NCBI RefSeq assembly: GCF_032191835.1
Contig: NC_083237.1
Coordinates: 41,974,001 to 42,038,000 of the forward strand
Reading direction: 5' to 3'
Source of the DNA: Heteronotia binoei
Lineage: Eukaryota
Length of the DNA stretch: 64,000 nucleotides
A model generated the notes under the pieces. It did no database searches. It was not told the origin of the DNA and saw nothing but the letters and a program-made list of their open reading frames with translations. How positions within the stretch are numbered: position 1 is the first letter of the stretch; every line of letters starts with the position of its first letter. The translations under genes were made by a program, and so were the position numbers. Shown one piece after another: positions 27,624 to 28,217 of the stretch.

Positions 27624-28217
27624 ATGTATCAGGAGATAGAGGTTGCCTTGAATGTTATCACCTTTTACCTCTACGATTGGCTCCCATGGAGGCGGGTTGA
27701 CCATTTTAGTAAAGAATTAGAGCAGTTACTCAAGAGAAGATATGAAGGTCACTGGTACCCAGAGACGCCCCTGAAGGGGTCCGCCTATCGCTGCATTTGC
27801 ATTGGGAAGACACAAGACTCTGTAGTAGAATTAGCTGCCAGAAGAAGTGGACTGACTGTAGGGGATGTCCAGGACAGCATTCCTGCAGAATTGATTGTGT
27901 GGATTGACCCATTTGAAGTCTCCTACCAATTTGGGGAAGAAGGGCCAGTCGAGACCGTGTGTCTAAAGGACAATAAAGGCTGCAGCACAGCCGAGGGTCA
28001 GGGCAAAAGCAGAAGCAGGCTCAACCCTGAGGCTCAGGCGTTTGTCCCCACTAGAAGTCAGAAAACCTTCTTGTCCAGCTCCCCACCTCCATCTTCGGAC
28101 CAATCCTTTTGTCCGACTTTTACCGTCGCTACTTTTGCAGCTACCAAGTTTGGCTCTACTAAAGTGAAGAAAAGCAGCAGAAAGTTGAATTGGGGTATTG
28201 TCCACCCAGCAAAATAA
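27624..28217 (+). CDS. TOB2: Captured TOB2-like BTG/Tob protein (197 aa), C-terminally truncated
   Basis: [11 protein letters not shown]...LP.RR...[26 protein letters not shown] (Box A), [22 protein letters not shown] (Box B), PAM2-like [10 protein letters not shown], Tob motif [27 protein letters not shown] and PLKGS favour TOB2 over TOB1 (compared with human sequences recalled from memory). Confidence 0.9.

Follow-up and report, generated by a model that had tools for sequence, protein, structure and literature searches.

A shortened TOB2 frame under purifying selection in a non-autonomous endogenous retrovirus of the gecko Heteronotia binoei

The window analysed here, a stretch of 64,000 nucleotides of the Heteronotia binoei genome, carries a captured and shortened copy of the host gene TOB2 within a 6,776-bp LTR element lacking pol. 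The copy is a single open frame of 197 aa on the forward strand, running from an ATG at 27624 to a TAA at 28217. It is very probably a selected accessory gene of the element. Purifying selection acted on the replicating retroviral lineage and not on the young insertion present in the window. The captured protein may be a shortened CAF1-PABP adaptor freed from host phosphorylation control, a reading to which we assign a probability of about 0.5.

Origin and modules of the captured frame

A search of the gecko's own genome (2.63 Gb; 120 matches among 138 scored candidates) led to both host genes, TOB2 (L031:4029-5057, 342 aa) and TOB1 (333 aa). The captured ORF shares 75% of its nucleotides with host TOB2 over 524 nt, plus 82% over a further 45 nt, and descends from TOB2 and not from TOB1. 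Only short matches with host TOB1 were obtained, which rules out a TOB1 or chimeric origin. With residues 1-193 of host TOB2 the element copy has about 59% identity. Among the best 120 of 233 database matches, the closest proteins (70-84%) are all named protein Tob2-like of Heteronotia binoei and the others are ordinary TOB1 or TOB2 proteins with at most 63% identity. An out-of-frame ATG located upstream at 27569 overlaps the start of the ORF and could lower its translation.

The N-terminal part corresponds to a BTG domain (Pfam BTG, E=1e-32, residues 1-110) and is followed by a PAM2 motif (Pfam PAM2, residues 129-143) scoring 22.9 bits when a 24-aa piece is considered, above the cut-off of 20. 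The first PAM2 of host TOB2 reaches 27.0 bits, and this higher score rules out the substitution F133L as an improvement of the remaining motif. The AlphaFold model exhibits a BTG fold over residues 1-113 and is disordered from residue 117; its best structural match is Tob in the Tob-Caf1 crystal (2d5r_B, TM 0.87). The Box A core (27750-27791) includes Y55, equivalent to Y65 of BTG2. This residue is a tyrosine in 43/44 aligned element copies and a phenylalanine, the residue of TOB1, in the other; the adjoining G54 is replaced by alanine in 25/44, the window copy among them. Box B (27888-27926) retains W93 and D95 in all 44 copies and E98 in 43 of them. The ten-residue first PAM2 (28020-28049) shows the same invariance at P135, A137, F140 and V141 (44/44). 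Downstream lies a motif of 11 residues (28131-28163), whose region has a dN/dS of 0.27 (p 6e-6).

Two parts of TOB2 are missing. Alignment with host TOB2 and with the other element copies places the junction of a 30-nt in-frame deletion at 28121/28122. The corresponding 10-codon spacer, IPRSAQPITF, is gone in frame in 44/44 aligned copies, one of which (L082) has a larger deletion at this position. In host TOB2, these codons are flanked by two 7-nt near-repeats (6/7 alike) located 30 nt apart, an arrangement on which reverse transcriptase is prone to slip, so that the in-frame length of the deletion needs no selection. The likeness to TOB2 then stops at host codon 193-194 and is followed by a tail of 13-14 residues and a stop. 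The tail has no coding-strand match in host TOB1, TOB2 or TP53 or in the relatives. In all, 148 of the 342 host residues (43%) are absent. In the TOB2 family the long C-terminal region has two PAM2 motifs; only the first was found in the captured protein. Most of this was foreseen in the preliminary description of the sequence, which had compared the frame with TOB2 and proposed that the BTG domain and first PAM2 were kept with the frame intact. The Pfam matches, the 197 open codons and the TOB2 alignment agree with it, as do the positions of Box A, Box B and the 11-residue motif and the in-frame collapse of the spacer in PTF-IPRSAQPITF-TT. Its loss of the C-terminal half is correct as to the second PAM2 and the C-terminus, "half" being a slight overstatement.

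The carrier element and its companion genes

The window copy displays the terminal features and priming sites of a Class I endogenous retrovirus (ERV). It is bounded by a 4-bp target-site duplication, CCAG (23888-23891 and 30668-30671), and by paired LTRs of which the 5' copy (23892-24677, 786 bp) is 98.7% identical to the 3' copy (29882-30667), with 10 mismatches. A primer-binding site for tRNA-Gly(GCC) follows the 5' LTR (24683-24700; 14/18 bases complementary to the 3' end of a host tRNA-Gly gene plus CCA) and a polypurine tract (29864-29881) precedes the 3' LTR. Putative splice-acceptor-like sites lie upstream of the TOB ORF (27356-27382; pyrimidine tract and AG, in 7/8 aligned copies) and before the next ORF (28236-28265). 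A leader ORF (25828-26337), an open frame of 169 aa with no Pfam match, is 69% identical in nucleotides over 517 bases to a gag-pol-env relative, L106. Two mutually similar tryptophan-rich leader ORFs can be seen in the window (25828-26809) and in L106 (1135-2291); in this autonomous relative they stand upstream of gag, and they are kept in the elements while belonging to no Pfam family.

L106 encodes Gag_MA, Gag_p30, RVT_1 and MLVIN_C, Pfam domains of gamma-like type. Family members match it, in unchanged order, in leader ORF, Gag end, pol end and pieces of env. Judged by these shared pieces and domains, the TOB-bearing element appears to derive from a gamma-like (Class I) ERV family. An env remnant is kept in sub-lineage B; the window copy has only short remnants of gag, pol and env and is non-autonomous. 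The existence of recent insertions with target duplications and without pol suggests that a helper mobilises the element. At least four primer-site types occur among the element copies. None of 10 pattern matches in viral contigs encodes a relative. Elsewhere in the window, another element (36672-43469) has a GC-rich interior and direct repeats that are 91-92% alike and spaced by about 6.3 kb, and an RT/RNase H-like frame of a Gypsy-type element was recognised by eye on the reverse strand (19712-20539).

The second gene, ORF2 (28308-29081, forward strand, 257 aa), joins a TP53 tetramerisation piece (Pfam P53_tetramer, E=2e-7; motif at 28488-28580) to a Gag nucleocapsid zinc knuckle (about 28707-28757) that matches the Gag end of L106. 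The piece lacks the p53 DNA-binding domain. This p53-Gag fusion is arguably the stronger finding of the element. In a database search with ORF2, the host's p53 was the only match among 1,630 candidates. The tetramerisation motif has 85 matches in the genome, nearly all inside elements. In the element copies, two host TP53 exons that the gene keeps 3.3 kb apart meet at a GT/AG splice junction, and the family therefore captured this piece via mRNA. TOB2 itself was presumably also captured through RNA. The preliminary description had cautioned that, native TOB coding regions being intronless, the lack of introns does not prove an RNA route; the spliced TP53 neighbour answers this at the level of the element family, though not for TOB. 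The likeness upstream of the captured ORF begins about 14-19 nt before the ATG, within the host coding exon, and a spliced 5' UTR was dropped as proof of RNA capture of TOB2, these 14-19 nt of UTR likeness holding no junction. Four loci of other LTR families (L095-L098) carry a closer TP53 piece (89% in nucleotides, three exons joined) and TOB is absent from all four, which suggests either a separate capture or an earlier stage. A third gene, an intron-free ORF for a type II C-type lectin (L033:4336-4833), is open in 25 of 61 scanned stretches and is lacking in the window copy. Both companions are constrained: dN/dS is 0.33 for the p53 motif (LRT 23; 19 copies) and 0.30 on internal branches for the lectin (15 copies).

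Copies, age and selection

The element loci examined number 58, the window and 57 fetched from the own-genome matches. The TOB frame is intact from the ATG through the 11-residue motif in 43; its tail is altered in two (L057 and L082), and it is broken by stops, frameshifts or truncation in 13. In seven further loci reached through ORF2, TOB is partial or absent. LTR pairs are at least 98% alike in 47 of the 49 loci where both were found, showing that the insertions are young. Those of the window differ at 10/786 sites; since about 0.15 stops would be expected since this insertion, its own open frame says little. Sub-lineages are separated by a dS of 0.6-0.8. Between the family root and the window copy lie about 0.49 neutral substitutions per site; for the host branch plus stem the figure is 0.05. 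We infer that many error-prone copying rounds have taken place since the capture and that the latter, dated by host branch length alone, is recent in host time.

Codon models were applied to 44 element copies and host TOB2, leaving out 14 element loci, TOB1 and a retrocopy. On internal element branches the dN/dS of TOB is 0.36 (LRT 57.6, p 3e-14). It is 0.50 on young tips (p 1e-4), 0.62 on four long single tips (p 0.02) and 0.38 on the tip of the window copy, which is about seven times as long as its LTR age. For the same 17 copies, non-coding flanks give 0.89-1.34 against 0.40 for TOB. Four out-of-register frames give 1.19-1.68 against 0.45 in the TOB frame, and the in-register antisense frame gives 0.55. 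Sixteen neutral simulations started from the host gene with CpG bias range from 0.81 to 1.19, and none of 600 simulated trees kept all 17 frames open. These controls replaced the retrocopy, L084 (G000:C4:124401013-124401594), a separate host TOB2 retrocopy that is 91% alike, with a stop, an internal deletion and no LTRs. It was rejected as a neutral control because it gave 0.37 and not 1, its unrooted branch also including functional TOB2 history.

Constraint is distributed by region: 0.375 in the BTG domain, 0.40 in Box A, 0.43 in Box B and lowest around the 11-residue motif. PAM2 has a value of 0.45, not significant alone (p 0.08), and neither the linkers (0.63 and 0.77) nor the tail (0.74) differ from 1. 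The stem after capture (1.1-1.8) does not differ from 1 either. Host TOB2 residues 1-193 show no difference in three other geckos and one to four in seven other reptiles and birds, so that, given the divergence of the element copy from this near-invariant sequence, the constraint on the element TOB is much relaxed. Purifying selection, as proposed in the preliminary description, is thus found, with a dN/dS far from 1 and most copies undisrupted; it applies in relaxed form to the replicating lineage, not to this insertion. Processed pseudogenes decay neutrally and have no LTRs, and the captured frames differ from them in both respects, with dN/dS of 0.36-0.45 and flanking LTRs.

TOB is not essential for spread. 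In one sub-lineage (L086-L090) it is broken in 5/5 fetched copies by a frameshift close to codons 24-28 together with losses around Box B, and the LTR pairs are nevertheless 99.6-100% alike. These copies have longer LTRs (1.1-1.2 kb) and a different primer site; ORF2 is open in 5/5 and the lectin in 4/5. By match pattern, about 26 loci of the genome resemble this lineage, some 21 of them beyond those fetched. RNA data give only a hint of element expression. Two runs of one study contain 5-7% of the window's words, and their contigs are mostly from relatives (10/47 and 19/86 at 95% or more). One contig of 792 nt, about 88% alike to L050, extends from the 3' half of its TOB into its ORF2, and the lectin of relatives is covered by several contigs. 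No GT-AG joint was seen in the contigs of these two runs, and the 5' half of TOB, which a filter may remove, is uncovered.

Possible function and relation to known systems

Residues Y65, W103 and D105 of BTG2 and W93 and D95 of Tob are reported to be needed for CAF1 binding (PMC2588512, PMC4656213). PABP binding by human TOB2 falls greatly when either PAM2 is lost and is abolished when both are (PMC7430666). S254 lies in the second PAM2 and its phosphorylation boosts decay, while binding is weakened through JNK sites of the disordered region (PMC7430666, PMC10590902). In the captured protein, the PABP residue F140 is present in 44/44 copies and the S254 site is absent. Under the adaptor reading, copying of the TOB element would depend on a helper ERV that has gag, pol and env, and the protein would be made from a spliced RNA. 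Its BTG domain would bind CNOT7/8 and its single PAM2 would bind PABP more weakly; the resulting deadenylation would be basal, lacking the S254 switch and subject to fewer inhibitory sites. TOB, the p53 tetramerisation piece and the lectin might form a cassette aiding survival of the carrying cell; anti-apoptotic effects of Tob have been noted (PMC4656213) and would fit the p53 piece.

It is possible, at distinctly longer odds, that the protein is a dominant-negative decoy which binds CAF1 but, its one PAM2 being weakened and the S254 switch gone, displaces host TOB/BTG proteins and lifts a growth brake, with a dominant-negative p53 piece working alongside it. A p53 tetramerisation domain on its own behaves as a dominant negative, and the neighbouring piece, devoid of the DNA-binding domain, is constrained. 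An intact CAF1 surface with the second PAM2 gone would suit a decoy, as would the fall in PABP binding that follows PAM2 loss (PMC7430666) and the suppression of CAF1 activity in vitro by isolated Tob/BTG domains (PMC4656213, PMC2588512). However, a pure decoy would have no need of PAM2, yet four core residues of this motif are invariant, and the most constrained part of the protein is the region of the 11-residue motif. The minimal adaptor is favoured because the protein retains its CAF1 surface together with one PAM2 and the conserved motif. More broadly, and tentatively, at rather less than even odds, a helper-dependent retrovirus may have built a remodelled tumour-suppressor cassette (mini-TOB2, p53 tetramerisation-Gag fusion and C-type lectin) that was selected through long replication while LTRs and primer sites were swapped, that is still filling the gecko germline, and in which both brakes are turned against their host counterparts.

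It is improbable that the protein, instead of altering the fate of the host cell, uses CAF1 or PABP to influence how the element's own RNA is stabilised, translated or packaged. Selection did occur during replication, with branch lengths far exceeding LTR ages, and a helper-dependent element would presumably gain most from such effects, but no RNA-targeting module is evident in the captured protein, one sub-lineage replicated without TOB and the companion genes point to host-cell targets. Still less credit can be given to a passenger whose open frame and low dN/dS would result from mutation bias, RNA-level constraint or the choice of intact copies. The broken copies (14/58 loci) stand outside the codon model, the retrocopy also gave a low value and the deletion between near-repeats could arise in frame without selection; however, flanks, shifted frames and CpG-bias simulations, all about 1 or above, largely refute it, picking intact copies removes stops and not missense changes, and the constraint tracks the protein modules. 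Domestication by the gecko as an expanded TOB2 family, to which the many copies annotated as protein Tob2-like genes and the young tips below 1 might point, is equally implausible, since nearly all insertions are, by their LTRs, too young to carry the signal and no such short protein from another species is present among the best 120 of 233 matches.

The host genes that retroviruses are known to have captured are mostly growth drivers, and defective transducing viruses are regarded as short-lived. The rv-cyclin of walleye dermal sarcoma virus is a host-type accessory gene acting on cell growth and long diverged from the host gene; unlike the gecko element, this virus is exogenous and replication-competent, and its gene is a cyclin. 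Acutely transforming helper-dependent retroviruses include simian sarcoma virus with v-sis and Rous sarcoma virus strains that are defective (PMC13297096). By anatomy, known here from sequence and leaving transformation apart, the gecko element would count as a transducing defective retrovirus: as described for the latter, a shortened host coding sequence takes the place of viral genes between the LTRs, a helper would be required, and ORF2 is likewise a host-Gag fusion (PMC13297096). It differs in that its captures are growth brakes (TOB2 and the TP53 piece) whereas theirs are growth drivers (PMC13297096), in carrying up to three host-type genes together, and in being germline-borne in dozens of copies, with the frame kept across the dS of 0.6-0.8 between sub-lineages. 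Bird ERVs also hold host-derived domains, but these have RT (PMC12287698), whereas the gecko element lacks pol and its selection has been measured; one supplementary file of that survey contains no BTG, Tob, P53 or CLECT entry. Neither a retroviral TOB nor this element family was found described in the titles and abstracts searched, a coverage that leaves most subscription journals outside.

[quoted passage not shown] It differs in having a single PAM2 against two in the family, in lacking the S254 site and in a 10-residue deletion, and about 41% of its residues are changed where the host is nearly invariant. TOB2 is too conserved among hosts to reveal which parts matter; the element copies do, the 43 intact ones amounting to a natural mutational scan that marks the CAF1 surface, the first PAM2 and the 11-residue motif. 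The sufficiency of one PAM2 and the partner of this motif become testable, and many Tob2-like gene models of Heteronotia binoei are proviral. The captured TOB2 element adds a variant to retroviral host-gene capture, in which a gene that brakes growth was taken up, reduced to three modules and kept under selection over about ten times the change undergone by the host gene since capture.
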